From the IMG/VR virus record IMGVR_UViG_3300033463_000022, positions 86,542-147,056 of that record: a stretch of DNA of 60,515 nt; one strand, 5' to 3'. Source of the DNA: a virus. Taxonomy: Duplodnaviria > Heunggongvirae > Uroviricota > Caudoviricetes. This document shows positions 5,316-50,171 of the stretch, one piece after another. The notes under the pieces are model-generated. The model was not told the origin of the DNA, searched no databases, and worked only from the letters and a program-made list of their open reading frames with translations. The stretch's first letter is position 1. Each line of letters opens with the position of its first letter. A program made the position numbers and the translations under genes.

Positions 5316-5400
5316 CCTCTTTGGGCAAAATAAAAAAAAATATCGCCCTCTTTTCTCATAATATGTAGAGACTATTATAAGAAAAGAGGGCGATATTTCA

Positions 5401-5886
5401 ATGGATATTGTTGATTTTATTTTGAAGTATTGGCTTGAGTTTCTACTAACTGCAATAGGTGCGGCGATAATAGCAAACTTTAAAAAGATTAAAGAAAAAA
5501 TTAAAGAATACAGAGAAATGAAAGAGACAGAAAGAAAAGAAAAATTTAAATAGAATTTATTAGAAACTATTAAGCCAATAGTGGCAGAATGTGTTGCCAA
5601 ATCAGATGCTACCGATGAAACTATCCAAGCGACACTAAAGCAGTTACAAGAGCAGCTTGGGAATCTCGAAGAGCGTGTTATTTTAATTACTTCTGGAGTT
5701 TTAGCCATGTAGGCGCAGGTGTTCAAAGGCGAATGTACCGCATTATTAAATCAAAAAACGCCTATTACATCCGACCAATACAACAAGTGCATGAACGACC
5801 ATGGTTTATATAATAGGCTTGGCGGCAACCACGATGGAGATTAGCTGTTTGAGCTAGTAACGGAAAAATATAAACATTAGCTATGA
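5401..5886 (+). CDS. N-terminally membrane-anchored coiled-coil protein, lysis-associated candidate (TAG-recoded, 161 aa)
   Basis: MDIVDFILKYWLEFLLTAIGAAIIANF TM segment; C-terminal YNRLGGNHDGD; 4 in-frame TAG; TGA stop before a terminator. Confidence 0.7.
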
Positions 5887-5920
5887 AAATAAAGGGGCTG
5901 TTTGAACAGCCCCTTTATTT
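5887..5920. terminator. Bidirectional intrinsic terminator between convergent units
   Basis: Perfect inverted repeat AAATAAAGGGGCTGTT-TG-AACAGCCCCTTTATTT. Confidence 0.85.
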
Positions 5921-6217
5921 TATTAATTGATTCACCACTTTAAAAATCTCTGGCCCAAAGACGGTTACAAAGCTTGCTAAAAATTCTTCTTCTTCCTCTG
6001 GAAGTGCAATACCATAGCTCGCAATTACAGCATGGGTTACTTCATGGCATATAACTTGAACAAATAGGGTATTTGTATTTACGGTTGATGATATATAAAT
6101 AGTATGATTTATACTATTACAGCATCCTATAGCTTTTCTGCCGTTTGGCTTTATCAGCTCGGGGTGATCGGGCGGGACAATGAAAATATGCCAAATCACC
6201 CCATTAATCTTAAACAT
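5915..6217 (-). CDS. Small HExxH zinc metallopeptidase-like protein
   Basis: VICHEVTHAVIASY...EEFLA; ATG 6217 overlaps the upstream stop. Confidence 0.75.
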   Translation of the reverse strand: MFKINGVIWHIFIVPPDHPELIKPNGRKAIGCCNSINHTIYISSTVNTNTLFVQVICHEVTHAVIASYGIALPEEEEEFLASFVTVFGPEIFKVVNQLIK

Positions 6218-6773
6218 TTGGATTGTTAACCAATTGTTCAACCTTGTTTGTTAAAGCCGCTAGTTTCTTATGGAGCATCATCTTTTCTTCTGGAGAGGCT
6301 CCACCAATCATTTCGGTAACATCCTGGCTTAGTTCGCCCATGTATTTCTCAAGTTCTTGGAGCTGAACTTCTTTGCCTTCGTGATGTTCTTTAGATTCCA
6401 TATACATTCGACGGGTGAGCGGACTACGCCCTTCGCGCAAGTCGCGGGCAACCGGCTCTTTATAGTCGTGGGGACGATCAAGCCAAGTTCCTTCACGCCT
6501 TGCAGTATCCATATAAGGATCGATGTATGGTTCCCAAGCTTTATCTTTCTCCCAGTGAGGAGTGTAATACCGACGAGATTCGTACTCTTCCTTCTCCTTA
6601 TTAGCGTCTTCCATGGCTTCAACAACAGAGCAGTAATAGCAGGCTTCAGCCATATCTTTGACCATATCGACAACCTCTCCGAGTTCATGAGTGTCGACTT
6701 TATCCTTGTTATGCTTTAACTGCTCATACGCTTCCTCAGCGACGATACACATTATTTCTTTAATATGTTCCAT
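6210..6773 (-). CDS. Acidic helical hypothetical protein (orphan operon)
   Basis: MEHIKEIM...; no TAG; TAA stop; ATG 6773 lies just after the stop of the upstream gene. Confidence 0.85.
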   Translation of the reverse strand: MEHIKEIMCIVAEEAYEQLKHNKDKVDTHELGEVVDMVKDMAEACYYCSVVEAMEDANKEKEEYESRRYYTPHWEKDKAWEPYIDPYMDTARREGTWLDRPHDYKEPVARDLREGRSPLTRRMYMESKEHHEGKEVQLQELEKYMGELSQDVTEMIGGASPEEKMMLHKKLAALTNKVEQLVNNPNV

Positions 6774-6777
6774 GAAA

Positions 6778-7200
6778 TTATGCCACCCTTTCCACAATCA
6801 AATTAGCGTTCTATACATTTACTGGGATAGTGCCAGTATTCTGAATAGAGAGTTGGGTGCAACAGCCGATAGGTACATCAATGAAAATATCAGCAGATAC
6901 ATTATTATAATTATCCACCGCAGTCGGGGTAGAGATCATAGAAGAGCTAGGAATGCCTTCCCCATTAAGGGAAATGGTTAGTTCGACAGGGCCTACCGTC
7001 TCTCCGGTGGGGACAGCAATATTGCTGCCATATGACACGCGAAAACGGGCCCTGCATTGACCATTGGCCAAGCCTCGGAGGGTTACTATCCCAGATCCTT
7101 CACGATGAAGGATCGAGGGGCAACCACGGACACTGACAGCATTAAACAGGACATCCTGATTTACTGCAACAGTCTGTTCAGCGACAGCTACAATTTCCAT
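6778..7200 (-). CDS. All-beta (BclA-C/TNF-like?) hypothetical protein, 140 aa with TAG read-through
   Basis: TAG 6811-6813 read as Q gives the natural ending VNVQNANLIVERVA-TAA, 4 nt before the next start. Fold call is inference. Confidence 0.8.
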
Positions 7201-7218
7201 GTTTATATTCTCCTTTTA

Positions 7219-8118
7219 TTAAGCTACGAGATTATTATAGCCGCAACCACATCCATAGTTAGTGGGGTAGCCGGCATAAGGATTTGCCACTGCATAAGCA
7301 GGGATGGGGTATGGAGCAACACGATTTACGATGTACTGAGTCTGAGCCGTATTATCAGCAATCAACTCACGAGTCTGGGTAGCCTGGGAAGCAGCCAGAT
7401 TCTGCATATTGACTTGATTCTGAAGAGCAACGTTCTGAGACTTGAGAGCATCGATTTCCTGCTGGCAGAGTTTGTCAAGAATAGCTTGAGTATTTGCATT
7501 GCTGGCTTCAAGTACATCACGAAGAGCATTGGAAACAGCATTGCGGTCTGCGCAAGCTTCGGTTGCAACAGTGTATTTAAGATCAGCAAGGCCAGCACGA
7601 TTCTCGCAGCAGCAGTTAGAAAGCTGACTGGAGACATTGGTCAAGCCATTAGTGATAGCTGTCTGAGTGCCAAAAGCCTGTTGCATGTTTGCCATCTAAC
7701 GTGCGTTATTGGATGCCTCAGCGCCAGCAAATCCAGATGCGATAGCAGCAGAGATTCCGTTGCCTGTCTGACAGATATTCTGGTTAACGCCTGCAAGTCC
7801 AAGGGCGGTGTCGCCAAACCCGCTAGTTACAGCAGACTGTAAGCCGTTAAGCTGATTAGAAATCTGCTGAGAGTTAAAGCCATTAGTAACGATGTTGTCA
7901 GTATTCTGGGTCATCATCCAAGGCCACATCATGAAGTTCTCGCCAAAGCCAAAACCATTCATACCAAAACCGCCGAAGCCTCCGCCCCAGCCACCAAAAG
8001 CAAAGAGAATGAATAGAATGAGCAGCCAGCTGCCATCTCCACCAAGGCCGAAACCATCAGCACCACGAGTTGCAGTTACAATATCAGATAGGGAATAACC
8101 ATTAGAATTATTGAACAT
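7219..8118 (-). CDS. Gly-rich, TM-containing, Gln/Asn-rich coiled-coil protein, 299 aa (two track ORFs joined at TAG 7696-7698)
   Basis: ORFs 7696-8118 and 7219-7695 are contiguous in frame: ...ASNNAR-Q-MANMQQAF...; AAGGAGG RBS at start. Confidence 0.88.
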
Positions 8119-8141
8119 GATTAGATGTTCCTCCTTTTAAG

Positions 8142-8336
8142 TTAGTGAAGACCTAATCTAGCTTTAAAAGAGGAAAACTCCTAGTCAAAGTCCTTTCCTT
8201 GTGATTGCATGAGATTGCGGGCAAGCGCTTCAATGCCCTACGTATCATGCTTTTCGATCATAGAAGCGAGGTTCTAAAGCATAGGATTTTGATTTTGTCT
8301 AAGCATCTGCATTAGTTGATTAAGATTCATAGGCAT
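8142..8336 (-). CDS. Small Met/Gln-rich helical protein (64 aa, 3 TAG)
   Basis: Manual translation MPMNLNQLMQMLRQNQNPMLQNLASM...DFDQEFSSFKARLGLH-TAA; AAGGAG RBS. Confidence 0.8.
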
Positions 8337-8350
8337 TATTTACCAACTCC

Positions 8351-8776
8351 TTAGAATTGATATACTTGCGGCGACTGAGATACTGCGGGCGTTTGAGCTT
8401 GCTTTGATGCGCTCTAGGTCTCGGCGGCCGCAAGTTTTCTTTCCTATCCCATACTCATTACCTCTTGTTGTAATTGTTTCATCGCAGTGTCGAACTCGTC
8501 GCGAGTGATGTACTGCGCAGGATTAACACTTTCGGGCTGCGGGATAGGACGCAGTTCATACAAATTAACTGTGCTTGTTCCATCTGGATTTATCTGCTTA
8601 GTATAAATCTTTTTATTGCCTAAATCTGGGAAATAAAATATCGAGCCATCAAAATCAACCGGCGTGCCTTTAACCTCTTCTATTGATGTCACAGGACGTC
8701 CTTTGAGCTGGCCGGCCTATTCCCTTATGGCTGCCTGGGGCTGGAACCAACCTGGGTAGTATGGATTATTTACCAT
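8351..8776 (-). CDS. Hypothetical protein, first gene of orphan operon (141 aa, 3 TAG)
   Basis: MVNNPYYPGWFQ...LKGRPVTSIEEVKGTPVDFDGSIFYFPD...; AAGGAG RBS; TAA stop. Confidence 0.85.
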
Positions 8777-8972
8777 TCCGTAATTTTCACTCCTTTGAAA
8801 AAATTTTTTATCAGGTCTTCCATTATATAGTGAAAATTGCGATAGATGAATTTACCAATTTTGCCAAAAATTTTGGTAAAAAATTGCTTAGAGTAGTCGC
8901 GCTCACCCTCGGGGCAAAATAGGTTAAAATATCTACAACCATTTTTAAAATATAAGAAGGAGGAAAAGAATT

Positions 8973-9272
8973 ATGAATCATAACATTCAAACATCTAAAC
9001 TCATTCTTTTTCTTTCCTATGGCTGTGCTATTTTACTATCAATTACTGCGGTAGTTGCAACTTTTAAATAGCTTGACACTTCAGCTCTCCATATTCTTGC
9101 AGGAGTAGCTTGGGGCGAAGTTGCTGTTCACACCGCAGTTTATAGTATAAAAGCAAAAGCGGAAAATCGTCTAAAGATCTTGCTTTCTATGATTAAAGAG
9201 CTCTCTCAAAATGATAAGTTTGAGCCTGAGGTTATAGTATAGCTCTTCGAAGGCGTAACTAGGGAGGGATAA
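8973..9272 (+). CDS. Two-TM holin-like protein (99 aa, 2 TAG)
   Basis: AAGGAGG RBS; two hydrophobic helices, then YSIKAKAEN; stop lies 2 nt before the endolysin start. Confidence 0.7.
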
Positions 9273-9274
9273 AG

Positions 9275-10795
9275 ATGACAGAACAACAGCTAAGACAATG
9301 GATTGTTGATACTTTTATGTCTTATCTTGGTGCTAAACAAGGTTCAGCAAAGCATAAAGATATTATTGATACATATAACAACGATAAGCCATTGCCTCGT
9401 GGGTATAAAGTTTCTTATACCGATCCTTGGTGTGCAACTACGGTTTCTTCAATGGCAATAAAATGTAATATGAAGGATCTTATTCCGAAAGAATGCAGTT
9501 GCAAGGCTTAGATCTCCCTATTTCAGCAACTCGGAAGATGGCACGAGGATGATACCTACCGTCCGCAAATTGGGGATATAGTATATTACGACTGGGATGA
9601 TGGTCCTAATTATGCAACAACAGATGATAAGAAAGACCCTAACCACGTAGGTATGGTATGCGAATCAAATGGAGATTCGTTCAGTGTAATAGAGGGAAAT
9701 AAAGGTACACCTGGCTAGGTTGCTATTAGATATATGAAAGTAAATGGTCGCTATATCAGAGGATTTGGTCTACCAGACTATGCTAGTAAGGCAACTGAAC
9801 AATAGCCACAAGGACAGAAAGGTCTAAACACTTATACTAAAAATGGTGTTTTTGTAGTAGAAGTTCCCGTCAGTTGTTTTAAACTATCCATGCGAAATCA
9901 TAAAAAACGTGATATGGGACAGAACTATTGCAATGCCAATTTCTTTGCCACTTATTCAGAAGAAAATAAAACTGTTGACTTCACTTTGCCCGTTGGGCAT
10001 CTTGTATGCGATTATAAAGTAAATCCAAAAGAATCTAAGAGTGACAAGTATTGTGATAAATACTGTCACGAAAGAGGTACTTTTAATGATGATAAATTCA
10101 CCTTTGATTCAAATAAATGGTCTTTTGACAATGGATTCTTTGGTAACGCTCTTACCACACTATAGGTAAAGGGTGGCAAAGCCTGGATCAGCGACATTAT
10201 AAGTGTCCCCGCTGGACTAGATTATGCAGTAACAGGCATCCCAATTATGATTAAAGGCAAAGATGTGAGCTGGACTAATTATGTCAGGCCGCAAGGGTGG
10301 AATGGTTCCGAGTTATATGCTACTTCACATATCTTTGTAGGTATCAAACAAGAGTAGGCAGATATGATTTATGTCATGGGTTGGACGTCTAAAACTAATA
10401 ATATGGTATCTACTTCTGAAGCTTACAAAACATTTTCCGCACTCGGAATGTATAGCGTAATGAAGCTCGATGGCGGCGGAAGTTATTTCATTAATGCAAA
10501 TGGAACAACAAAAGCTACCACAGAGAATAGAAGAATAAATGCTATTATAGAGTTTGCGGCCGCCGGTACATAGTGCCCTTATACCGAGCCTTTTATTGCA
10601 CTTAAACAAGGTTCAAGTAGCACCACTGGTGTTAAATGGATACAATGGCAACTAAATAGGAAGGGCTATACTTGCGAGATTGATGGTTCTTTCGGGCCTA
10701 TCACAGACGTATTAGTGCGTCAATTCCAAAAAGCAAATAATATCGCGGTTGATGGCATCGTAGGACCCGCCACCCGCAAACTATTGAAAGGATGA
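9275..10795 (+). CDS. Modular endolysin: CHAP + phosphodiester-glycosidase(NAGPA)-like + PG-binding domain (506 aa, 6 TAG)
   Basis: DPWCAT...NHVGMV...VIEGN (CHAP); VMKLDGGGS (NAGPA-like); LKQGS...IDGSFGP...VDGIVGPATR (PG_binding_1-like). Track fragments 9275, 9890 and 10364 share one frame. Confidence 0.9.
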
Positions 10796-10802
10796 ATGAT
10801 TT

Positions 10803-11204
10803 ATGTCTCCAGAATTAATTCAACAAATCTTTACTTTAGTTCTCATTCCTCTTGCTGGAATCCTTGTAAGATTCTTGGTTGTCTTTCTAGAAGCTAAATG
10901 TACTGAGCTTCAAAGTAGAACAGACAATGAGAAAGCAAAGAAATATATGTCAATGATTACTGACACTATTACTCGCTGTGTTATTACCACCAATCAGACT
11001 TATGTTGATGCTCTTAAAGAACAAGGTGAGTTTGATGAAGCGGCACAGAAGATTGCTTTCCAGAAGACACTAAATGCGGTTATGTCTATCTTAACCGAAG
11101 ATACAAAGCATTATATAGAAGAAATTACAAGCGATATGCAAGAGTATTTGATCCAGTTAATTGAATCTGAGGTCAACAAAAATAAGCTTGTCGTCGAAGG
11201 ATAA
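10803..11204 (+). CDS. Holin (single N-terminal TM, LL-H-like)
   Basis: N-terminal hydrophobic helix; follows endolysin; no TAG. Confidence 0.75.
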   Translation: MSPELIQQIFTLVLIPLAGILVRFLVVFLEAKCTELQSRTDNEKAKKYMSMITDTITRCVITTNQTYVDALKEQGEFDEAAQKIAFQKTLNAVMSILTEDTKHYIEEITSDMQEYLIQLIESEVNKNKLVVEG

Positions 11205-11209
11205 AAAGA

Positions 11210-11249
11210 AAAAGGCTTCGCTCTTTAGAAATAAAGAGCGAAGCCTTTT
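11210..11249. terminator. Bidirectional intrinsic terminator
   Basis: AAAAGGCTTCGCTCTTTA-GAAA-TAAAGAGCGAAGCCTTTT between convergent lysis and tail units. Confidence 0.88.
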
Positions 11250-11255
11250 ATTTGT

Positions 11256-12464
11256 TTACTAGATAACTGTAATTAGTATATCTATAGAAACTGCTCCAGT
11301 AGAAGTATCTCTAGTGAAGGTCAGTGTTTGGTTTTCTGTATCAACATCAAGACTAATAATGGTATTATAAGCAGTTTTATTTGTCAATGGAGTAATCTAT
11401 AATGATTGTCCATCCAATAGCCAAGTTTGCCCACTGAGTATTGAAGTGGAGCTGTTATTGCTAAAATTAATTACTCGTCTATATACTTTTAATGTTTCTT
11501 CATCGTTCTCTGCATTAACACTCAATGAATCAACTTCACTAATTGAAGTAGAAAATTGAATATTTTGCCATCCAGGCTCTTGTGGTAGCTTAGGTTGAGA
11601 AAACCAAAAGCTAGTAATTGAGCCACCACTTTTTTTTAGCGTCACAGCAATAATTTCGTTTGTAGATTCGGTTTTAACGTTTGGTGATAGCATATTAAAT
11701 ACTGCTATAATTGACGCCTCAACGTTTTCAAAATTGAAATTATACGTTCCAGCTACCGGAACCCCATTACGAGCTATCTCCACTGTATTCTGTCCAACGC
11801 CAGTTTGTTCTAAATATAATGTTTCAATCACCTTAATAGGATTGTTGAAATTAATTGTTCCTAATAGTTCAACATCAGTGGAATTAGTAGCTACATAAAT
11901 ATTGCCAGAAATTGAGATATAATAATCTCCAGCTCCCATTCCTTGGACGGTCACTTCTCCGTTAACGGGGTCATTACCACTGAAGAATTTTGCTGCACGT
12001 TGAAGCTCCAAGTCCATACTGTAGTCGCCGGTGGTTTCGTTTTCAATAAAAGATCCTGTAGGCGCCCCTGCTGGTGGCTTTGTTTGTTTTACGGTTACAG
12101 TATTAAATCTCGCCGCACGTGGAAAAGTACACCACAACTTAGGAGTTAAAGTCCCTCCTCCTTCCACCTCTACGGCAGGAGGGGTTTTTGCCGTAATCCC
12201 CTATGTCCTAACATCAGCAGTCCAAACTGGTTTCGCTCCGCCCATTTCTGCTATAAGGGCCAGCCCAGTTGGTGTCTTAAACCAGACAGAACTGTCATAG
12301 TTTTTATCATCTGTTCCTGGTATCTAGTATGGATCGGAATATTTAACCTCTACATATGTGCCAAGAGGAATATTATCTGCATCTGCCATCATCTAGGTTT
12401 TAGATGTATACTATCTATATATTTCGAAATTTCGACCAGGAGGTCCTCCGTAAAATGCATCCAT
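11256..12464 (-). CDS. Tail-associated/receptor-binding-type protein (402 aa, recoded)
   Basis: ATG 12464 with AAGGAGG RBS (MDAFYGGPPGRNFEI...); read-through of TAGs to TAG-TAA at 11256; last gene of the tail operon. Confidence 0.7.
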
Positions 12465-12478
12465 TTCTTTATACCTCC

Positions 12479-12739
12479 TTAATCTTCCTAAATATAATCT
12501 ATAATATAATAGGCGGGCGTGGAGCCGTTCGTTCCTATCCCTAGCTATCTAATATAAAAACCATCAAAGTCTAATTCATACAAACCCGAATATCCTATTG
12601 TAATAACGGTATTATTAATTGTGAACTAGTCGCCTCTGGAGGCTTGAATACCTAATTTAATAATAGGATTTGTGTCTAAATCTGTAGGGATCTGTCCGCC
12701 TGAGCTAGCTCCCATTTTATATATCTAACCCAATTTCAT
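12479..12739 (-). CDS. Small tail-region protein (86 aa, 4 TAG)
   Basis: Manual translation MKLGQIYK...KLGIQASRGDQFTINN...ITIGYSGLYELD; AAGGAGG RBS. Confidence 0.75.
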
Positions 12740-12753
12740 AATTCTTACCTCCT

Positions 12754-14619
12754 TTATATTCTAGTCAGCACTTCCGTAGCTGTAATGGACATTGTTCCAT
12801 TATAGGTTAAAGGAAGCGAAAACTGAGTTATCTAATAATTACCATTTATCTAGCTTTCCTTATCATATACATAGATAATATTATTTACATCCATATAGTA
12901 TTTAGGAAGGCAAGTAATAGTTATAGTAGTGTTGTAGTTTAAGTTTTGATACAACACTTCTCTTAATTTATCGAAACAGCTAGCACCAGTGGTGCTAATA
13001 CTAAATAGACTCTTACGGGCTTGGTCGGTCAATAAAAAGACCTTCTTGCCATAACTCATCCAACGATTTCTAAGCTCTCTTCCTTCATCGGTATTAGGCA
13101 CAAATAATACCTCCGGCACATCTTTATTATAGATAACATTGGCGCCAGAGTCTTTTACTATCTTAGTGCGGCGACCGATTTTATTGACAGAATATTTTCC
13201 TACATCTGAGCCGGTATCTATGAAGTCAAGCCAGAAAGTGAGATTATCTGGATTAGTAGTGACAGTATTAGTCCACCCCATAGTATTATTGTCTTTTAAC
13301 TCATAAGCTTCTCTCCAGCTCTTGATTAGCTCTTGATCGTAATACTCTTGAGATACTCCGGTTTGCTACTAAGCAATTAAAGCCTAACGATATAGCTCTT
13401 CTCGCCACTCGGAGCATGGAGTGCCCCTTAGCTCAAGACCATTAACTGACTAAGGTTGAATTATATAACACTTATTAACAGTATCATAATATAAATACTA
13501 TAGTGCAAGATCTAACTGCGGTTTAGCGCATACAGATAAATGATAGCATATCTAAGTTTCTTTGTTCTTTGTACCATACACATAGAAGTCATTCTTCAAG
13601 TTATTATATTTGGGAGATCTAGTTATTTGAGTGGTAGTATCTAGATCTGTTAGGCTATATAAATACTTAGCATTATTATAATTCTTTAGGTAGTCCTCTG
13701 GTGTTAACTCATTAAGAGGACTAGCGGTATTGAGATAATTCTTTATTTGTTGAAAATGAAATACTCCTTGAACATCATAGAAGTATTCAAAGTTACCAAG
13801 CGTTTTGGCTATCTTGTCTAAGAGAGTAACTACTGTATCTCCAGCATTGAGAGTTAACTCACCAGGGTAGGTAAACTCAGTTTCCTCGTAACCTACATCA
13901 TCGCCATTACCATAGATCCGATTTCCATGGTCTACTTCAGCATCAGTAAAAGAAAAGCTAGAATAGGTTTCCGAAAACTAGATATGTTTACTACCAATAT
14001 ACTTGACTAACTACACTACATAATCATCAACATCAGTAATCACTATCTTATCTGAATCTTCCCCACCATAGTGATTAACTGCTTCAAAAATTATGTCATA
14101 TATCTTAGCATCCAATCTCTCAATTGAACCATCGTCATGCTATATCTCTTTCTCGTTGGCAACAAGAGTAGCAGGAATCGTACCGCCGCAAGTACCATCT
14201 AACTAACACATCTTATCTCGTCCTTGTATGCTAATAGTCCAATTGCCGGTACTTCTACTTATCGAAACGCTAGTAAGAAAGAATGTTCCGCAAGGAAACC
14301 ACACAGGAGAACCATAGTTCTAATACTAAGGCAGCGGATTATCATATCCTATATATATTCTAACCTTCTTATCTATTGCTATATCGTTATTCAAATCCTC
14401 TATATTAGAGACTTGCGGCGATGCTAGCATCGTGAGGTTTATAGTGCGGCGAACCGCGGAGGATGCATTTACATTTAGCGTCCCCGCGGTAATAGCGCCT
14501 TCGATAGTTTTTATCGGACGTTCATCAAAAGTCAGAAGAACAATCTTAGCATAATGTGTGCGGATTTGAAGTTTATCAAGGGCGGTCAGAAATTCCATAT
14601 CATTAAGGTAATTATCCAT
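12754..14619 (-). CDS. Tail tip/baseplate hub-like protein (621 aa, recoded)
   Basis: Track fragments 14326-14649 and 12850-13281 share a frame; ends NGTMSITATEVLTRI-TAA; synteny. Confidence 0.75.
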
Positions 14620-17449
14620 TTCCACCACTCTCCTCGTAATAAATCTCATAGAGGCAATTTATCTATCCGCCTGGGGCGAGATTATTTATAAATTGGATAT
14701 CTTTAATAAATGTTGCAGGTTCCAATTTATAACCATTCGGCTCAATAACTTCTACGACCGATTCATCTTTTAGATTCTTGACATTTAATTGAGCATAACC
14801 AGATATTGAAATAGACAAAATGCTATTTATCTTAATATCTTCGTTATTACCCTTAAGAAGAGATGTAAGCCACTCACCAGCTACGTTAGAGCCGTCATTC
14901 TGCCATAATAGTATCTTACTATACCAAATTGTTGCAGCGCTATTATTACTTCCTCCATTAGCTTTTTTATATTTAACTTCATAAATGCAGTTAATATGAA
15001 GTGCAGAATCTGGAGGCGCTCCTTGACCAAATGAGACACTTAATTCGGTAATATCTTGCTCATTTGCTATGTTATCGGGGAGTTCAAAGTAGGTTCCTAA
15101 TGCTCGTTCTTCTGTAATTGTTCCAGATATATTATATGAGGGCGGAGTAGTATCCATCCAAACATTATACAAACTACCACCGTAGCCTATACCGGAATCT
15201 ATCCACAAACGCTTTATTGTGGTGGTATTAATATTATACCCAGTGAGCTGAGGGCATTCATTTTCTATTTTATTGATGATATTTTTCTCTTCGCTTGATG
15301 GAGTGATGACATATGAGCAAAGCTAATTGTCTAAAGTGAAAAATTCAGTATCTTCTATGTCAGTTATAACCTTAATAATGCCAGCATTCTTAAGGCTATC
15401 AACAGAGTTATCCATGACTTCGTAAGCAGTAGCGGAGAAATCAAATAACATACGGCCTAGCTGTTTGCGGGGCGACAATGTTACATTCATCAAGCCTATA
15501 ACGATATTGCCCTCGGTGGGCGAGCGATAAAGCTTGTAGGTAAAATCATTAAGGAACTCCTCGACTTTCTCGCGGAACTTGCGCTCCATGAAGATATTGT
15601 CGTAGGAGAGATCTGTCTTATGATAATCAAGAGAAGAGGAGAAAAGGTTGCTCGCGGCCGCCGCGGTTCCGGACGGTTCGCTAGACCCCTAGCTACTACC
15701 GACCTCACCCGCCGCAGGCTCACTATTCGCAGAAGCAATCAAATCATCTGGTCGAGGATATGTATCACCTGGCTCATATCCAGTCTTATGGGTAAAGGGC
15801 GGTTTCAAAGACTCCGGATTTTCTGGTTTCGGGGCGTAATAATCTCTCTTACTCTTAGTGTCTTCCCTTATCGACCTGCCAGCAACGACTAGCTCGTCCC
15901 TATAGTACCAACCATCTACCTCTTGCTTAAAGAATGTAGAATCTTCATCTGTATTAATAGTAATTAATCCCTTAATCGGGAATTCCGCATAATAGGCATT
16001 ACCATTAGCAACCAGATGGGGATATTTATCTCCTAATGTATCTTGCTTAGCTCTCAACACAGTATGCTTAAAGCTAGATACGTCGTTATCAAATTTAAGA
16101 GCTAGCTATACGCCATCACGATATATGTAGCTATACTCAAGATTATTAACATAATAATCTGCCGTTATAATTGGTCTACTTTGATTGCCAGAAGTATCCT
16201 CTTTTTGCATAGCATATTTATATCTTACTCCACTTTCAATAGTAAAGTCAGTATAAACTGTTGCACCATCTTTATATTTCTCCTAGCCCTCTTGCTCATC
16301 TATAGGCTAATAAAAAGAGAATAGTTCATCAAATGAAACATAATTGTCCGCTTCAGAGGAGCGTAACACTGTATAAATTCCGCTATAGAGCTTTGGAGTT
16401 TTTAATATTACTTCAATACATCCATTCTCTAAGCAGTATTGAGAATCCGAATTACAATATACAATTGCTTCTGGAAATATTATTGGGTTCTCTGGCAAAC
16501 TATAAGGTTCTTCTTTATAAAGCGAATATCCATTTTCTGTCTCTACTTCATATTTAATTTGATAATGAAGTCCATTCATTATCTAGTATTTAAATTTATA
16601 CTAATCACTCTCTGTATTTGGATCATGGTATAACCACCCAGAATTTTCAAGCTCTTCGCCGTTTTTCTTGAGGGTAAAACGATATAATTTTTCTGCCTCT
16701 TTATTTTCAACCAAAGAAGTATAATAACCTGTAGCAAGCTATCCATTCACCACAACAGAAAGGGAAATGCCGCTTGTATCAATTGCTTTGATAACAAGCA
16801 CGTTAGACCATTCGGAAAGCGCACCAATAGTGTTTATTTGGTCTTTCTTCCAGTCTGCAAATGACTAGCCCGAAAATAGCGGCCATAGACCATTTACACC
16901 AAGCCTTACTTGGATTTTATAAAGAATACCGGCTTGCCACGGAAGCTAGAAAAATTTCTGACTTGACTGATCTACAGATATTATTTTATTATCTTTTAAA
17001 ATTATTTCAGATACATTTGCAATAGATACATAGCCATTATCATAATAGAACCTTATGTTTGTATCATAAGAAAAAGAAGTTACAGCTGTTGTTCCATTTT
17101 TTACAGATGTAATATTCTTCGTTGTTCCATCATTCTTCTTAACGCTAGAAACCTAATTAGAATAAATTGTTTCTATAACAAACCAATCGTTCTTTACAGA
17201 AATTTTCCATTTATTATTCCCTAGCGACTCTAACGCAGGGTCATTTTTAGCAAGATACCTAATATTATCAGGACTTTTATCAGTAGAAGGAATTACCGAG
17301 CTGTTATTTGACTGTTTAGTAATCAAAACTTCAACATGCAAAAAATCACTCTATCCAGTAACCTAGCTTAGCTAAAACTCAAAGCTTGGCTCCTCCAAAA
17401 TAGAAAAAACCTTCTCTGCACTCGGCAAAGAAGGAGGAAAAAGTGCCAT
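14612..17449 (-). CDS. Large tail/baseplate structural protein (945 aa, recoded)
   Basis: Five track fragments (14663, 15323, 15689, 16307, 17153) in one frame; ATG 17449 with AAGGAGG; YKLYRSPTEGNIV distal-tail-like segment. Confidence 0.75.
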
Positions 17450-17549
17450 ATTTAATTACGCCTCCTTTTACTCTATCTATTTACTTTGAAAAATCTATAA
17501 CCAAAATAAATAATACTTGCCCAGCCTATAAAGCCAAAGAGGAAGAGGG

Positions 17550-17921
17550 TTAACCCTCTTCCTCTATAAGTGGATATAACTGTTCCATTACCTGTACCGA
17601 TAGCTCTACATGGTCGAGGTCTGAAAGCTTAATCTTGATAAGAGATACATCATTGTCAACCTTATCTAAAGCTTCTAACTCCTCAGTTACCTTCTGACGA
17701 TTCTCAGGAGGTATATTGAACATACCGGGGTTGGCTTCGTCGCGAGTGCCGTAGGTTTCTAGAACCTTTATACGGCTCTCTGCCATATCTTCAACAATAG
17801 GTTGAAGAAGTTTGATATTGCGGGTAATGGTAAAAGATGTGCGTGCGGGCAGGCGCATAGTAGCGTCCTGCCGCACGGTTGCAAGCCCGTTAAAAAGGGA
17901 CTGAATTTCGAAGTTTGTCAT
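17550..17921 (-). CDS. Small tail-fibre-associated protein (chaperone-like)
   Basis: 123-aa TAG-free ORF with AGGAG RBS downstream of fibre genes; function by synteny only. Confidence 0.7.
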   Translation of the reverse strand: MTNFEIQSLFNGLATVRQDATMRLPARTSFTITRNIKLLQPIVEDMAESRIKVLETYGTRDEANPGMFNIPPENRQKVTEELEALDKVDNDVSLIKIKLSDLDHVELSVQVMEQLYPLIEEEG

Positions 17922-32765: not shown

Positions 32766-32798
32766 AAAGGCTCTGAGGAATCATACCTCAGAGCCTTT
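32766..32798 (-). terminator. Intrinsic terminator between the 174-aa gene and TMP
   Basis: AAAGGCTCTGAGG-N7-CCTCAGAGCCTTT with T-run on the minus strand. Confidence 0.75.
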
Positions 32799-32835
32799 CA
32801 ATTCCCTAATAATATTCAAAAATACCCATAATCAA

Positions 32836-33360
32836 TTAATCTTTCCCGGCCACATTCTTTACCTCTTCAAGAATCTCAAGACCTTCACGGTTCTTTATCT
32901 TCGCTAGAGCTTCGCTAATTTGTTCATTCAGCCCACCGGCTTCACTGTTCGCTATCTTCAAAATACCGGCAAATGAACTATTATAGTCGGCAATATCCTT
33001 AGTGGTCTCCTCTACCAGACTTCTAATCTCGTCATACTCCCCAGAGGGGATTACTGAGACGATACCATTGAGAACGCCACTGGTCTCTAACGCATCATAG
33101 GCTTCTAGCGCATTAATATCGTCGCCAAAGTTGATCCCACCATAGTAGTGAGCAATAGCGAGATCGAAGAAAAGACCGATGCGGACTGGAGAGAAACGAC
33201 CAGTATTTTCATCAAGAGCATTGTCAACTATATAGGTAATAATGGCAATTTTGTCCTACATAGGAAGATAAGTGCGGACGTCGAGGTCTGTGGTGTCATT
33301 GATCTTGAGTTTCGCGGTAGGAATCTTGGTTTCAAGATTCAGTTCTTTAAAATCAGGCAT
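32836..33360 (-). CDS. Tail assembly chaperone-like protein (174 aa, 1 TAG)
   Basis: Manual translation MPDFKELNLE...YLPMQDKIAII...; AAGGAG RBS; located between MTP and TMP (function inferred). Confidence 0.65.
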
Positions 33361-33392: not shown

Positions 33393-33421
33393 ATTATAGC
33401 ATAACATGGAAGTTATGTCAA
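33393..33421 (-). promoter_or_regulatory. Perfect sigma-A/sigma70 promoter
   Basis: TTGACA-N17-TATAAT on the minus strand upstream of 33360. Confidence 0.8.
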
Positions 33422-36321: not shown

Positions 36322-37071
36322 TTATTTCATGGAATATAAATTTCGCATCCATGTCTCAACTTGCTTATCGGGCTTACCTCCCGCAAGTCTTACTTGCAAG
36401 TCAGTATCCCATTCAACATAAGCATTATATCTTTCAACCTAATCAAATAATTGAAATAGGTTGTACTCTACACTCTCAGTGAGCGGAATGCGAGGCCCAA
36501 TGCGGAGTATAGATAGATATCGAGTTAAAATACTTGCGCTATCTTCTTTAGCAGCTTTCTATTTAGCAATCTTTAAACGACTTTTATTCATTTTTTCAGC
36601 AATCTCTTTGGCGCGTTTACCTTTAGGGTTATACACAACATTCCTGCCCTAAAACAGGCTAGCTGCGCATAATACCTATTTAACGACGTCCTAAAACATA
36701 TCAAAGTTATTATCGTCTATCATTACTACTTGTTCGCCAGTCATTATATTAAAACTTCGTGGCATCATAATAACCTAGCTGTCTGGGAAAAGTAACGTAA
36801 GTAAAGTGATAATAGCCTTCTTTTTATCTTTATTTTCGGGCTACTCTAACACTTTCATTAATATTTGGAAATTACTCAAGTTTGATAAAACAGTTTCGTC
36901 CTAAGTCAACCCGTGCTTATCAATACAAAGATAATTCATTGCCATAAAGAACTATGATTCTCCCATAAAAGCTATATCTTTAATGGTGGGCGAATGTATT
37001 ACTAATTGTAAATCAACAATAGGAATAGGTATGCCAGCCATTAAAGCAAGCTAGATATCATTTTTTGTCAT
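36322..37071 (-). CDS. Conserved neck/tail-completion region protein (249 aa, 10 TAG)
   Basis: Full manual translation is open only with TAG read-through; ATGA overlap with the upstream gene. Confidence 0.75.
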
Positions 37072-40018: not shown

Positions 40019-40054
40019 TTTAAGGGGATAGGGGATGAACCCTATCCCCTTAAA
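40019..40054. other. Stem-loop immediately 3' of the major capsid gene
   Basis: TTTAAGGGGATAGGG-N6-CCCTATCCCCTTAAA; no U-tract. Confidence 0.7.
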
Positions 40055-40072
40055 CATAAGACGATATATTTA

Positions 40073-41089
40073 TCAGAACGTAGCGCTAAGCTGCGTATCC
40101 TCGTAAGAGCAAATGTTATTGGTCATAACAACACCAACGCCGACCTTCTGATAGACCTGCATGTCGCGGGACCAATCCTCATTCTCGCGCTCGCGCATAT
40201 GCGCAGTGCCTTCGAAAGCGATCTTGACAGGCTTATCATTGTTGTTACCGGAAGGAATAATCCAAGCAAAGCCAGGATTAATAATCTTACGAGTGTTCAT
40301 CTCGTCCTCGAAGGACTGAGGAAGAATAACAACAGGGGTGCCCTTGTAGTTAGCAAGATAGCCATTCTTCCAGCGCTCGTTACGGATTTCATCAGAAACC
40401 CAAGCGGTCTAAGGAAGCATCTTGGAAGCGAACTCACGAGTACAATAGATAACGGAGTTACCGTAGGCATCAGTAACAGCAATAAGATTATCCATAAGAG
40501 TCTCATTGAAGCCCGCGGTGCTTACGATATTAGCGGAAGGAAGCTGATTAATAGCTCCAATAAGAGCCTCAGCGATCTCACGATAGATCAGTTCGTCCAT
40601 ACCGTCCATAATGATCTGAATGACTTCGGCGAAGTCAGCGCGGCCATCAAAGAACTCCTCGAAACCGATCTGAGCAGCGCCGCCGATAGCGCTAGTCTTG
40701 ACTTCATACTTGGTCTCACCAAGCTTGAAGACTTCATACACACCAGCAAGTCCAACACGGGTGATGAACTGCTTAGCACGAATACGGCCAACCTTACGGG
40801 TGAAGACCGCGGTCTCACCCTGCTTGAAGTTGCGGGTCTCAGCGAAACGGCCATAAGCGTTTTCAATACGCTGAGGAAGGATATCATTTACAGCCTCTTC
40901 AACGAGGGTAAAAACATCTTCCTTATTCTTGCGGTAAAGCTCATAAGTACCGCAGAGAGGCTCAAGCTCCTTACGAAGCGTCTCATTAATGGCATTGTAA
41001 TTGAGGGTTTCGCCATTATAGCTGTAATTAGTGGAAGGAGTAGCCTGAGCAGCAGCCTTCATTAGGCTAACAATCTGTTTAAATTCCAT
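40073..41089 (-). CDS. Major capsid protein (338 aa, single TAG at 40409-40411)
   Basis: Track ORFs 40409-41089 and 40073-40300 are in one frame; strong codon bias; size and position after scaffold/decoration genes. Confidence 0.85.
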
Positions 41090-41109
41090 TATATAGCACT
41101 CCTTTCCTA

Positions 41110-41787: not shown

Positions 41788-41788
41788 G

Positions 41789-43144
41789 TTAGAACTCCTC
41801 CTTATTCTGGATACGTCTGACGGCCTTTACCCACTCTGGCGCGTCATCAGCATCTTCTGTATTATTTAAATTAAAAGTAGTGGGCTGAATTTCTTGCTCT
41901 TCAGAATTCTCTTCCTCAGAAGCAAAGTTGATTCCATTGCGGAAACAATAGACGGAAAGCTGAGCTTCGATTTCATCAAGGCTATATTTATCTATATTCT
42001 CGACGCAATCTTTCTTTGCTTCGTCGTCAAGCATATAGAACTTAGCGATCATGTCCTCTTTAGCCTTACGCTCGCCAGCCAGTTTGTACTCACGAAGTCC
42101 AGCAACCTCACCATCAAGCTCGGTTTTCTCAGCCTCGAGAGCAGCATACTTGTCCTTGAGTTCATTATACTGAGCCTCAAGAGCAGCATAATTATCAGTC
42201 AATTCTTGATATTTAGCACTATAATCATCTTCGTCTTCTTTCTTATCTTCCTTTTTATCTTCTTCCTTATCTTCTGCTTTTGTTTCCTTTTTATCTTCTT
42301 TTTTATCCTTATTCTCTTTATCAGAATTGTCCTCGGGAACTTTCTTGACGAATTCACCTTCAGCAGGAGCGCTCTCTACGTCAGAGGTTTCCTCTGCCGC
42401 GAAAGTCTCCGTTACAGGCTCTTCGCCTTCAACAGGAAGGATATTCTTGTTCTCTTCTTCCATGTCAGAGCCTCCTTTAGTTATAGCTTCTTTTAGTTCG
42501 TTTATCATGGAAAACATTGTGGTCTTGAACTCCTCAAACTCTGGTGAGTTCAAAGAGAAAGCTGCAATGGAAGCTCCCTCAAAACAAGGTTCAAAATGTT
42601 CTCCAAGCACGCATAACTTTTTAATTAATGCCTCATTATAAATAAAAATTCTATGACTCGAATTATCACTGTTTGCCCAATAACCTGAAGAACTTTCTCT
42701 GTCGAGTTCCATAGATTGGTTATTACCTTTAGTGATCATTCTTTTACTCTCTGGATAAGCACCAGTCCAAATATAGCCTTCGGTACAAAGGTATTCGTGC
42801 TTTACACCATTATCATTAAACCACTAAAACCAAACCTGCGCGTCTGTGGGGACAAAGCCATAGGGAAAAGTGGTATCAATAAACTTTACGTCCCCATCAG
42901 ATAGATCTAGTTCCCTGTTGTGCTGTTCAAAGTCTTTTTCTTCTTTATTATAATATCCAACAATAGGAGAACCAGGTAGGTTACGTCCCATCTCAACGGC
43001 GACGTCCTTTGTAATAACTGTACTATTGCGGTTCGGCTATTGCCCAACCCAGCAGACTTTGATCTTAGCATGGCTGATAAATGGTGATATTTGAGTATTT
43101 TCAATAAATTCCATGGTGTTATTTACTGGAATACTTAAATTCAT
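41789..43144 (-). CDS. Prohead protease-scaffold fusion (451 aa, 2 TAG)
   Basis: N-terminal PNRNSTVIT...QSMEL...LGEHFEPCFEGA protease-like domain followed by an acidic coiled coil. Confidence 0.8.
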
Positions 43145-43155
43145 TTTATCACCCC

Positions 43156-44763: not shown

Positions 44764-44777
44764 ACGGCTCAACCTCC

Positions 44778-45137
44778 TTAGGCAAGCCCAGCGCGGGTCA
44801 TAATGTAATCGTAGGTAATCAATGCTTCTTCGGTGTAGGGGATCTCGACTAGCTTGATCCCCTTAAAAGCACAATATCTACGCTTCTATGTATCATTATA
44901 TTGCTACTGATACAAACCGCGCATACCACCAAACTTAGAAACAGCTTGATAATGCTACTTGCCTTGATATTCAATTAAAAAATCAAGATTACCATCATCA
45001 TCAAAGACAGCGAAATCAAACTTTAAAGGTCTGCCCGCAGGAGTTTTTAATTCTGGAAAAACATACTCTTCAATAAAGTTGACGTCATTCTTCTCTAATA
45101 TTTCGTGTATTTTTATCTCTCCACGACTAGCTAACAT
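44778..45137 (-). CDS. Small PD-(D/E)XK (Vsr/DUF559-like) endonuclease (119 aa, 3 TAG)
   Basis: SRGEIKI...LKFDFAV...LIEYQGK-Q-HY...YNDT-Q-KRRYC. Confidence 0.78.
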
Positions 45138-45210
45138 ATTTCTCACTCCTTGCCTTTGAATTCTATTAAATTTAAAAATAGTTTACGATATTTTATCATG
45201 TCTTGCCCCA

Positions 45211-46962
45211 TTAATTCAAAAACATGAAGTCTCTAAAAGAGCGTTTACGCTTCTTCTTATTATCCTCTTCTTCACGGATATAGTAGATGCCATAGCATAG
45301 AGCAGAGAATTTATCCTTCTTAATATTCTTATTAGCTTGCTCAAGAATAATATTAACACCTTCATTTTTCTGTCGCAAGTTAAGAAGTTCTTCTTTTAAA
45401 ATATCCGTAAGGGTAAAAGGCATCAAGTATTCCGCACGCTCTTCAGGGGTCATAGCTTGACCCTTCTTAGTGCCCATCAAGCGCGCCTTAGCATGGCGCT
45501 CCTCACACAAGAACTTTACCTTACCGCTATCAAGAGCAGACTAGACAGCAGAATAAGCTTCTGTATTGATAGGAGCATTAGCTTTTATAGTATAAATAGC
45601 ATCATCTTCCGTATCATTCGTGCGGAATTGCTTATATTTCTACTCAGCATCTTGGTCGGTACCACCATACACGCCGAACGGAGGATAAATCTCTCCGTCG
45701 TCGTCCTGGTGGATAACCATAAAGTCCATAAGGCCTGATCCAAGACCGTTAGCATCAATTATGATGCGTTTGGCATTATACTTATAATATAGCTTCTTTA
45801 TTCGTAGTGCCTACAAACCATAATGTTCTGCTTCATAGGCATAGATATTCACCAACGATTTTATTGACGCCCCTTGTGCTTGCGGCGTTACCTTAAATAC
45901 GCAGATAACCGTCTAGCACTTGAAACGACCAACGTCGACGGATAGAATATAGTAAGCTTGTGCTGAAGACCTGCCGGAAGACTCGTACTCTGGCTGCTTC
46001 AAGATACGGTTGCGGTCAAACTTCTCACCATTAAAGAACGCATCCTCGACATTACCGGTCCAATGGCTGCAATATTCACGTTCAAAGCTAGCTTCATTGA
46101 ACGTTGGGTCTCGCCGCAAGTCTTGCACGAACGTTTTTTGCAGAAGTCCCATCAAGATAGGCACACGATAAGTACCGCCCATGATAAAAGCTTTATCAGG
46201 CTCAGTAATCATCTATACCAACGTCTAAATTAATTTTTCATAACTAAACGTGCCTTTATAACCAGCTGTGGTAATATATATCTGACTCTGATTCAACACT
46301 TCATCTTCTTGTACTGTTCCATCCAAACATCGTCTTGAAACGTTCATTGTAGGCAACAGAACTTCTTGGAGTATCTGCTGGTCGATACCGACGCACTCTT
46401 CCAGCACTCCGCCGTGTTTACGGCGACCTCTGGTGCTTTCGCGCGCCGCAAGGTTCTCAAAATCACTGCCATTTTTAAAAATAAATCTACAGTGGTCTTT
46501 ACCAACTTGTGTCTTTCCGCGTCGCCAATCTATCTCCCTCTTAAAAGCCGGTATTTTATTACAAATATCGTCGACCTTTTCTTGAAGGATTTGCGCAGCC
46601 TGCTCTTTTCCGCCAGCAGAAGAGAACAGATGTACGCCGGGGAATAAAATACAGCGAATCATCATAATAAGGACTGTTAAGAATGACTTAGAATACGCAC
46701 GAGGATATACAGCGTACACGTATTTATATCTCATTGCTACTCGTAGAAAAACTCGCTGATAGAAGAATAGGTGGAAGGTTAAGTCTTTCTCTTTTTCTTT
46801 ATCTCCACCCGTCTGCATAAAATCAATAAATAAATCGGGGTATTCTCGCCAAAAAGAAATATACTATACCAAAACAGGTTTTATTGCTTCAATGCGTTCT
46901 TCTGAAATACCAATTTTTTTTTCACTATGAGACGCTGTATCGAGTAAGGATTCAAGACTCAT
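45211..46962 (-). CDS. terL: Terminase large subunit (583 aa, recoded)
   Basis: YPRAYSKSF Walker-A-like, RGRRKHGGVLEE Walker-B, YITTAG, nuclease YILSVDVGR and KDKFSAL; three track fragments in frame. Confidence 0.9.
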
Positions 46963-48109: not shown

Positions 48110-49182
48110 CAATTGCCCTCCTTTTCAATATTATGTTTACGGCTTCTACAACATTTACAGATGGAATACCAGCCATCCTTAGAGCCTCTATTTATTGAAA
48201 AGAAATCATTATGAGCTGGCTTAGTCTGCCCACATTTGGTACATTTTTTAAAGGGGAGCCCAAGACGCTTAAATTCGTGCGTGATAAAAGCTCGTTTAGC
48301 CTCTGCCGCGATCATTCTTGGGATTTTGTTTCTCCAAAGGCTAGAAATGTATTCTACACTATGCTTGATTCCAAACTCTACCTACAATGTTTCTTGAATA
48401 TCAATATTCTACACCCCATCAATTTTACATTCTACCAATCGTTCATATAATGGGTGGTCTTTAAGAGCATTAGTGCAGATTGAATCAAAAGCTTGCATTA
48501 AATACCATGTATCGCCTTCAAAGCGATCATAGCTATCTTCCTTTAATCGCGAATAATTACATAATATAGCTGATACAATTTTTGGATCCATTAAAGATAT
48601 ACCGTCAATTACAACTTCATTATCTTCATTCAACCAGCTATTATCTTCTATAGGGATATACGAACCAGAGGAACGAGTAAGCTTTACTGGAATTACAGGT
48701 TTTCTATAAGCCTACTTTATAATATATTGGTCTTTTCGCATATCAATTAATGCCTTTTTCATAATAAAAGCATCTCTCCCAGAGGTGTGCTTGATAGCTG
48801 CGTCCCAGTCATCAATAGAGGAACGAAGCTACCCTAAATAGGGAACTTGCTCTAAATCATCTTTACTAATTGAAATTTTAGGTTGGAATATTACATTTTT
48901 GTTTTCGTTTATAAGATTATATATACCATCTTCGCCATTTTCTAACTAACAAACTAGCCCTTCAAAAGAGGTCTCGCGCTTTGTTACCGTAGCCATACGA
49001 TTTTCTGTCAAGACCTTTTTCTCTTTCTTCTCTTGTTTCTCCATGCAGAGAATTAAATAATCAGCTAGAGCTTCCAAATAGTTAGGAGTTAGCTCAGAAT
49101 TTTCTTCGACTATTTGTTCAACAAGAGCAAGACGCTCTGAGGGAGATTCAAGTGTATAATCAAGTTTAGGCACTTTCATCAT
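48109..49182 (-). CDS. Putative DNA-binding regulator with HTH-like segment and C-terminal Zn ribbon (357 aa, 5 TAG)
   Basis: Fragments 48946, 48409 and 48109 in one frame; IDGVQNIDIQETLQVEFGIKHSVEYISSLW resembles a sigma-region-4-type HTH; CTKC...CKCC. Confidence 0.65.
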
Positions 49183-49196
49183 CTCCTTACGGAATA

Positions 49197-49258
49197 ATAT
49201 TAACATTTTTCCAAACTTTTGTCAAATAATTGCAAAATGGAAAAATTTTTGGTATTAT
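49197..49258. promoter_or_regulatory. Divergent sigma-A-like promoters at the strand switch
   Basis: Minus: TTGACA(49225-20)-N17-TAATAT. Plus: TTGCAA(49230-35)-N17-TATTAT. Confidence 0.65.
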
Positions 49259-49284
49259 AATAATAGTAATAAGGAGGCATAACT

Positions 49285-49656
49285 ATGTACGATGGTTTCT
49301 ATTTTGATAGCTTCTATGACTTACCACCCAAGGCTCTTCCAAAAGATTGCGAATATTACTTTAATGTTTTATATCTCGCAGTAAGTGTTCCTCCTGGTAC
49401 GTTTGGTAGTACTTGGGAGTTTACCGATATTAGTAGGATAAAAGACCCTAGACCCATTTGTGTATATTATTATGAAGACCCCGATGTAGACGACTGGGAG
49501 ATAGAAGCTAATCCGCATGCAGTGGTAGAGATAAATACTAAAACTCGGGAAGTAGTATGGTACGACATGATAGATTTTGAAACTGAAAAACCTTGGTTAA
49601 TAGAACCGATAGGCGAGGATTTCGACTATGAAGAATCCGATGAAGAAGAAGAATAA
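49285..49656 (+). CDS. Acidic hypothetical protein
   Basis: AAGGAGG RBS; 123 aa; D/E-rich tail. Confidence 0.8.
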   Translation: MYDGFYFDSFYDLPPKALPKDCEYYFNVLYLAVSVPPGTFGSTWEFTDISRIKDPRPICVYYYEDPDVDDWEIEANPHAVVEINTKTREVVWYDMIDFETEKPWLIEPIGEDFDYEESDEEEE

Positions 49657-49790
49657 ATAGGATATAAAGGAACTTGCGCGGCGACCGAGGTCTAAAACGC
49701 CACGTACCACGGATAAAGAGGCGCAACCGCAAGAGGATATTCTGGATAAAAGCCGCTATGATATAAGCGACGAAAGGGTGGAATGGAAAA

Positions 49791-50087
49791 TTGATTAACG
49801 CAGAAGAAGCTAAAAAATTATATAAAGAACGGTTGCAGAAGGATAAAGAGGCACGACTTGCTTTAGTAGAAGAAAAATGTGCTTGCACGCTGCAACAGAT
49901 AGAGCAGTGGATTATTTCAGCATGTAACGAGGGTAAAAATCAAATACGTGTCAACTCAGAAATAATTCCTTATGGTTATATGGTAGACCAGATAGGAGAA
50001 TACCTACATGATAAATTGGGATACGATAGTGAAATAGAGTGGGATTTAGATGTGCCGACTATACTAATTGTTAAGTGGGCGGATTAA
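49791..50087 (+). CDS. Hypothetical protein
   Basis: 98 aa, TTG start, TAA stop. Confidence 0.7.
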   Translation: MINAEEAKKLYKERLQKDKEARLALVEEKCACTLQQIEQWIISACNEGKNQIRVNSEIIPYGYMVDQIGEYLHDKLGYDSEIEWDLDVPTILIVKWAD

Positions 50088-50171
50088 AAACTCTACACAC
50101 TATATTTAAAAATTATAACAAACCACTTAACAACTTTTGTCCAAACGCATTTTTAAAGAAAGGAGACCGCA

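Follow-up and report, generated by a model that had tools for sequence, protein, structure and literature searches.

The window analysed here, being the whole 60,515-nucleotide stretch that forms the final 60.5 kb (positions 86,542 to 147,056) of the 147,056-bp IMG/VR phage record IMGVR_UViG_3300033463_000022, carries repeated copies of a motif of fixed geometry, which raises the question whether this motif is a promoter and, if so, by which factor it is read. In a first-pass annotation it had been described as a two-box element (GRCAA-N24-TTTT) in front of late transcription units containing in-frame TAG codons, and had been taken for a possibly undescribed, phage-specific late promoter recognized by a phage sigma factor or activator. 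In the current work, the whole genome (labelled G000) was compared with two complete relatives, G002 and G003, at the whole-genome level. The motif is apparently a genuine promoter class that has not been described so far, literature searches having turned up no description of it or of promoters in recoded phages; the sequences show the motif together with its fixed spacing, location, conservation and confinement to phage DNA, whereas the start point, recognition by something other than sigma-A and the involvement of a phage factor are inferred from them.

The window encodes a lysis cassette, a tail-tip operon, a 2897-aa tape-measure gene and an HNH-portal-head module, and its early region carries consensus sigma-A promoters. 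Reading TAG as a sense codon raises the coding density of the late region of this rumen phage from 0.38-0.69 to 0.94-0.99. Window positions 8000-17900 are present in only three bovine-gut DNA runs, a megablast search of 17 kb against GenBank phages returned no match, and an Rfam search of the window returned zero family matches.

Alignment of the sites gives TTtGGrCAAAA (box A), N4, tTAAt (box B), N13, TTTTYA (box C), an A/T-rich N7 and finally T-R-R-A, in which the A closing TTTTYA is invariant (39/39 aligned sites) and is counted as position 0. The two boxes noticed earlier are real, but the motif is more than bipartite, the third box tTAAt and the start-region signature belonging to it as well; a canonical TTGACA is absent as had been remarked, yet the upstream TTGGRCA resembles TTGACA with one extra G. 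The N24 copies at 8865-8833(-), 8913-8945(+), 17521-17489(-), 45207-45175(-) and 50141-50109(-) are present as they had been described. The sixth copy, at 5324(+), also exists, but not with its proposed 22-nt spacing: position weight matrix alignment gives the N24 register with TTCTCA (5353-5358) as box C, in place of N22 followed by TTTT.

In the window, GRCAA-N24-TTTT occurs eight times compared with an expectation of 2.24 (standard deviation 1.24), a count reached in 0 of 100 shuffles; the three additional matches comprise an intragenic one at 42677(-) and two, at 37437(-) and 54310(-), which have no TTTTYA and score at noise level. Genome-wide, the combination GGCAA..TTTTYA is found six times at a spacer of 24 and 0-1 times at each other spacer between 14 and 34, and half-matrices trained separately on the upstream and downstream parts agree on a single shared offset (11 versus at most 2 in G000, 14 versus at most 3 in G002). 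A matrix trained on G002 only yielded 19 matches of at least 12 bits in G000, as opposed to a mean of 1.85 (maximum 5) in shuffles and three with the reversed matrix; it recovered all six previously annotated sites (6/6), and 13 of its 19 matches are intergenic, although intergenic DNA makes up just 17% of the genome. The fixed spacing and the cross-genome enrichment together exclude chance, and the 147-kb genome as a whole contains approximately 15-19 copies, almost all of them between genes. Variants of the motif differ by lineage, with GGG or GGA in box A and a TCC extension of box B. A palindrome joining boxes A and B (GGAcAAAA..TTTaaTCC) was considered and dismissed, being confined to G002 and not conserved in G000.

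The copies behave as promoters generally do, in agreement with the earlier proposal: they are intergenic, co-oriented with the downstream gene, situated 25-60 nt before start codons, conserved at orthologous positions and distinct from the sigma-A promoters of the same genome. Five sites are followed, as had been claimed, by a ribosome-binding site and a recoded gene, the start codon, with its Shine-Dalgarno (SD) sequence, lying 26-55 nt past the box and every gene containing TAG codons; at the 8913(+) copy, for example, the SD AAGGAGG starts 10 nt past box C and the ATG lies at 8973. A portal search retrieved 43 related loci (portal identity 46-62%), in which the N24 spacing again formed a spike. 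Since two conserved coding motifs, CxxCGQ..FFS of the HNH protein and GQ..FFIINEA of the gene following the portal gene, supply much of this spike, the N24 count in these loci was set aside and orthologous intergenic positions were used in its place. At such positions G002 and/or G003 keep the motif ahead of the tape-measure and tail-tip genes, the HNH-portal unit and nrdD. Of 26 distinct relatives, 11 have a match that precedes the portal gene by 430-500 nt. When four phages are aligned across the 50141 region, the boxes are kept between flanks that have diverged.

The motif is essentially restricted to phage DNA. A pattern scan of IMG/VR found it in at least 119 stretches, among the matches listed mostly contigs of 90-160 kb, while a stricter pattern (the IMG/VR pattern plus N7-TRRA) gave 12 single matches among 185,579 prokaryote species, each represented by one genome, 5 of the 12 being mis-binned relatives of this phage; because TRRA is satisfied by most real sites and few chance matches, the stricter pattern overstates this contrast only modestly. 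Contigs of relatives of this phage (loci L193, L196, L197, L199) occur mis-binned in metagenome-assembled genomes of unrelated taxa, namely Erysipelotrichaceae, Ca. Enterocola, Gastranaerophilaceae and Collinsella; these bins provide no host assignment.

Four independent lines of inference indicate that transcription most likely starts at +7 to +11 after the invariant A. The SD starts at +10 or +11 at four sites, and mature tRNA-Gln begins at +11. Among the sigma-A-type promoters of this genome TATAAT-N5-TAGA is found 17 times, versus at most twice at other spacings, which places the A of TAGA at the canonical start, and the motif carries the same T-R-R-A at +8..+11. This signature is also seen in 65 IMG/VR sites, for which T-R-R-A was outside the search pattern (T in 76%, followed by 78/89/96% purine). 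Finally, the start predicted for the 5324 copy falls in the loop of a hairpin that would otherwise lock the SD (see below). The earlier expectation of a start just downstream of the TTTT box is thereby very probably correct. With such a start, TTTTYA(AA) would span roughly -14 to -7, while box B (tTAAt) would be centred on a position near -30 and box A (TTGGRCAAAA) would stand near -40. A second, AT-rich sigma-A-like family was observed in G000 at 5-70 kb (loci L049-L052, e.g. L049:8124-8174), which numbers 17 copies, often within the tRNA array, with a near-identical spacer (TTAAAAAATAT) and TATAAT-N5-TAGAAA.

Initially the motif had been regarded as a signal of late, TAG-containing units, with transcriptional timing layered on the code switch; neither part is supported. 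Further copies precede nrdD (immediately left of the window; 1 TAG in 764 codons), a 263-aa HNH-like gene with zero TAG, the PhoH unit, the tail-fibre module, tRNA-Gln(UUG) together with a GIY-YIG gene, and a second GIY-YIG gene. Moreover, G003 does not recode TAG and yet has the motif at orthologous sites, and therefore the class is independent of recoding; it is neither strictly late nor tied to TAG. The suppressor tRNA itself stands behind a promoter of sigma-A type and not behind the GRCAA motif. With regard to the genomes concerned, G003 (loci L063-L070) is a complete 146-kb relative of 33% GC with direct terminal repeats and the standard code, G000 and G002 both recode TAG, and the suppressor tRNA (anticodon CUA; L051:226-299, corresponding to G000 40226-40299) lies approximately 145 nt downstream of its sigma-A-like promoter and a terminator hairpin.

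Considering the above, we hold it to be probable, albeit with appreciable reserve, that the motif is a clade-wide, phage-specific promoter class for post-early genes, read by the host core polymerase together with a postulated phage specificity factor, which would serve middle as well as late genes and direct the start to +7 to +11 within T-R-R-A. A sigma-A promoter would have TTGACA and TATAAT 17 +/- 1 bp apart and a start about 7 nt after the -10 element, whereas the TTTTYA(AA) at the -10 position has neither the A-11 nor the T-7 pattern of sigma-A, no conserved element is found 17 bp upstream of either candidate -10 element, and box A is 25 bp from box C. Because the element at the -10 position would not offer the A-11 and T-7 which sigma-A needs, and no -35 element stands 17 bp upstream, the host core would presumably be steered by one or more phage factors, either a strongly diverged minimal sigma resembling gp55 of phage T4 or a sigma-remodelling/activator pair touching boxes A and B.

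The search for such a factor had the following outcome. A phage sigma factor, as the first-pass annotation had envisaged, is possible, but models of the sigma-70 family (PF04542, PF04545, PF08281, TIGR02937) detected no member in G000, G002 or G003, all weak matches being helix-turn-helix domains of GIY-YIG homing endonucleases. As regards a phage RNA polymerase, no NADFDGD-type catalytic motif was found in real genes, and the 2897-aa open reading frame (ORF) that was considered as a polymerase encodes the tape-measure protein. Pfam and PHROGs comparisons of about 60 proteins assigned replication, nucleotide-metabolism, lysis and structural functions, small winged-helix and AbrB-like proteins being the only transcription factors revealed. 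The candidate DNA binders, putative readers of the motif at most, comprise a 90-aa stand-alone winged helix encoded in all three genomes (59/52% identity; predicted local distance difference test score (pLDDT) 88; MarR-type fold matches), a 121-aa TrmB/MarR-like protein and early AbrB-like proteins. A conserved 254-aa early protein was discarded as a sigma candidate as it looks like a TIM barrel, and a 175-aa zinc-ribbon protein encoded beside DnaB gave a poor model (pLDDT 64) with uninformative fold matches.

Several of these and other observations weigh against a phage-specific class as proposed here: the sigma-70-family search came back empty; no gene other than those for small winged-helix proteins is a candidate for the postulated factor; the site logos are partly circular, the matrix itself having picked the sites; the genes were called by a simple ORF caller; no RNA runs containing window 8000-17900 are listed; many copies have a TAnAAT-like hexamer at +3..+8 (85% have T at +8 and 64% have A at +4), which sigma-A could use at sites with long leaders; and box A resembles a sigma-A -35 element, standing at G000 7985(-) 17 bp upstream of TGnTACAAT. 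As for the sigma search, minimal sigmas such as T4 gp55 resemble sigma-70 in domain 2 only (PMC2988020), and for this reason an empty result from general models is weak evidence. In the main rival reading sigma-A is assisted by an activator: the hexamer would be the -10 element of a promoter without a -35, boxes A and B would be bound by a phage activator (e.g. the 90-aa winged helix), and the role left to TTTTYA would be that of a spacer or an extended element. This reading, to which we assign a minor though not negligible probability, would accommodate the TATAAT-like hexamer after box C, the presence of small winged helices in all three genomes, including the 90-aa and the 121-aa proteins, and the lack of any detected alternative sigma gene. 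It would, however, place the start 6-8 nt past the hexamer, which at four sites is within the SD or past it and in one case within tRNA-Gln, and 5-7 nt downstream of the TAGA by which sigma-A starts are recognized in this genome, while the A at the -11-equivalent position is conserved in 64% only; because the start lines point to +7..+11, the hexamer is unlikely to be the -10 element. Pairing box A as -35 with a -10 at motif positions 22-27 was rejected, as that stretch is not conserved in G002.

A non-promoter function, be it that of an intrinsic terminator or a repressor operator, or a pattern due to chance or coding constraints, appears very unlikely. Hairpins do overlap the motif at G000 42903, at G002 38224 and at several GGGCAAAA..TTTGCCC sites of IMG/VR, and two matches in conserved coding sequence are explained by conserved peptides; nevertheless, a significant fold across boxes A to C is seen in just 3 of 39 sites, the other 36 thus not having the GC-rich hairpin and T-run of an intrinsic terminator, and neither the co-orientation with downstream genes at 25-60 nt from the start codons nor the fixed spacing and cross-genome enrichment would be expected. 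Use by the phage of an alternative sigma of its host (for sporulation, flagella, stress or the like) would be in keeping with the absence of a detected phage sigma, but we find it hard to credit at all. The motif fits none of the known consensus sequences for sigma-54 or for sigma-B, -D, -E, -F, -G, -H or -K; in sigma-54 promoters 10 bp separate a GG at -24 from a GC at -12 (TGGCAC-N5-TTGCW), while 10 bp after GGRCAAAA stands TAA, not GC. The motif also differs from the TTTACA (-35) and GTTATA (-10) recognized by the group-5 sigmas TcdR, UviA and BotR (PMC4031146), neither box appearing in the motif logo. Furthermore, exact matches never exceed one per genome among the 185,579 species, and phage contigs account for 5 of the 12, the pattern being strict and the host perhaps lying outside the collection.

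Among phages whose promoter classes are characterized, T4, SPO1 and Kayvirus provide the closest counterparts of the proposed class. The late promoters of T4 (TATAAATA at -13..-6) are recognized by gp55 together with gp33 and the sliding clamp (PMC2988020); they are likewise a phage-specific class without a -35 element, and the core TTYAAATA found here matches TATAAATA at 6-7 of 8 positions, so that a corresponding reader would be a sigma too diverged for sequence models. General sigma models identified no gp55 or gp33 homologue, no gp55- or gp33-specific model having been used. Unlike the T4 late class, which needs no upstream sequence, the motif has two extra upstream boxes at invariable distances, near -30 and near -40; its core has T instead of A as the second base, and the host is of Gram-positive type, as judged by the strong SD. 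The T4 middle class (MotA box at -30 plus a sigma-70 -10; AsiA/MotA) is similar in that a box about 12-13 bp above the element at the -10 position substitutes for the -35 and in that it takes in nucleotide-metabolism genes and tRNAs, whereas the present motif differs in sequence, has an element at the -10 position that is not sigma-70-like and carries an additional box at about -40; no MotA or AsiA homologue was found, no search having been aimed at either.

With respect to phages of Gram-positive hosts, the SPO1 consensus sequences are AGGAGA-N17-TTTNTTT and CGTTAGA-N18-GATATT. In the SPO1 cascade, middle and late promoters are served by the phage sigmas gp28 and gp33/34 (PMC13401047), and the resemblance consists in a large Firmicute phage whose early sigma-A promoters are followed by phage-specific classes; SPO1 differs in its consensus, its standard 17-19 bp geometry and its recognisable sigma genes. 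Kayvirus late promoters (TGTTATATTA) have no -35 (PMC7698491), and here too there are two classes, namely consensus sigma-A early promoters and -35-less late ones whose sigma has not been identified, with some homing-endonuclease genes having their own promoters; the Kayvirus element, however, is a single long -10 box as opposed to three boxes over about 50 bp.

The coordinates of the copies within the window, together with one sigma-A-type promoter for contrast and an inverted repeat discussed below, are compiled in Table 1.

Table 1. Motif copies and associated elements in the 60,515-nucleotide window
Element	Position	Strand	Description
Degenerate copy	5320..5369	+	No box B, box C TTCTCA; precedes 161-aa membrane-anchored coiled-coil gene 5401-5886
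26-nt inverted repeat	5338..5398	+	-34 kcal/mol as RNA, z = -8
Full copy	8820..8869	-	Divergent to the 8913 copy; heads leftward six-gene unit 8776-5915; ATG 55 nt past box C
Full copy	8909..8958	+	Boxes A, B and C read GGGGCAAAA, TTAAA and TTTTTA (last base 8947); precedes the lysis unit of a 99-aa gene, endolysin and holin
Full copy	17476..17525	-	Upstream of 945-aa tail-tip gene; G002 ortholog 12410(-)
Weak copy	32805..32854	-	15.5 bits; box A degenerate, boxes B and C and start signature intact; precedes tape-measure gene
Perfect sigma-A-type promoter (contrast)	33393..33421	-	TTGACA-N17-TATAAT with TG, within the late region
Intragenic match	36855..36904	-	In 249-aa gene; G002 ortholog match 29818(-)
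Intragenic match	42632..42681	-	In 451-aa head-module gene; kept in all relatives; overlaps protein motif GQ..II..FFIINEA
Full copy	45162..45211	-	Upstream of conserved HNH gene, portal gene and head genes
Top-scoring copy	50096..50145	-	Leftward via about 880 nt antisense to conserved + strand genes, then terminase-side late unit

At the left end of this series, the promoter core of the degenerate copy makes up the left arm of the inverted repeat, the predicted start TAGA (5366-5369) falls in its 9-nt loop and the SD of gene 5401 in its right arm. As predicted from the fold, this hairpin would lock the SD of gene 5401 on read-through RNA, while RNA beginning in the loop is unstructured. The same arrangement is encountered in T4 gene e and I-TevI, where the late promoter is situated within the 5' arm of an SD-locking hairpin (PMC3014915). 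Gene 5401-5886(+) contains four TAG codons, and its 161-aa product, in which a membrane helix at the N-terminus is combined with a coiled coil, may be a lysis-timing protein.

A separate terminator hairpin (17543-17560) precedes the tail-tip copy. The weak copy before the tape-measure gene has strong orthologs in G002 (26154(-)) and G003 (25609(+)). In the region 32766-32854(-) this copy is followed by a GC-rich hairpin with a T-run and then by the SD and start codon of the tape-measure gene; the order of promoter, terminator-like hairpin and gene is the same in G002 and G003, the hairpin sequence being different, and the hairpin could be an attenuator, an antitermination site or a 5' stabiliser. 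The two intragenic matches in head-module genes, which are kept in all relatives because they encode conserved peptides, may be internal promoters or coincidences.

The HNH gene behind the 45162..45211 copy (44778-45146(-)) lies between the terminase-side genes and the portal gene, and is 73% (G002) and 62% (G003) identical; it is therefore a fixed packaging-module HNH rather than a mobile homing gene. No gene start is near the 50141(-) copy, which together with its downstream flank is kept in L007/L010, as are the arrangement of this region and a downstream AGTGTGT..CCGC stretch. Its antisense path crosses two genes of the + strand, 49791-50087 and 49285-49656, the latter conserved in L010 (E = 3e-18), and the terminase-side late unit has its own sigma-A-like promoter at 49225-49197; the copy may be a source of late antisense RNA. 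Just left of the window (L053:6380-6415), a palindrome (ACAATATCTTGT) is located between the nrdD copy of the motif and the nrdD SD. It resembles an NrdR box, which would suggest control of the phage nrdD by host NrdR.

For the biology of these phages, it is conceivable, and we put this forward tentatively, that gut and rumen phages of 90-200 kb, forming one large clade with recoded and unrecoded members, share a system that redirects the host polymerase without a recognisable sigma-70 member, employing a three-box promoter in which TTTTYAAA has no A-11/T-7 and further boxes stand at about -30 and -40. If this were true, it would constitute a new mode of promoter recognition or of sigma appropriation in Firmicute-type phages. 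The post-early programme of the clade is independent of TAG recoding, and the motif provides a transcription map, distinguishing early sigma-A units from phage-specific ones, for a widespread clade of large uncultured gut and rumen phages. Its matrix can be used for operon annotation, for spotting phage contigs mis-binned in bacterial metagenome-assembled genomes and, given a host, for the design of reporters.

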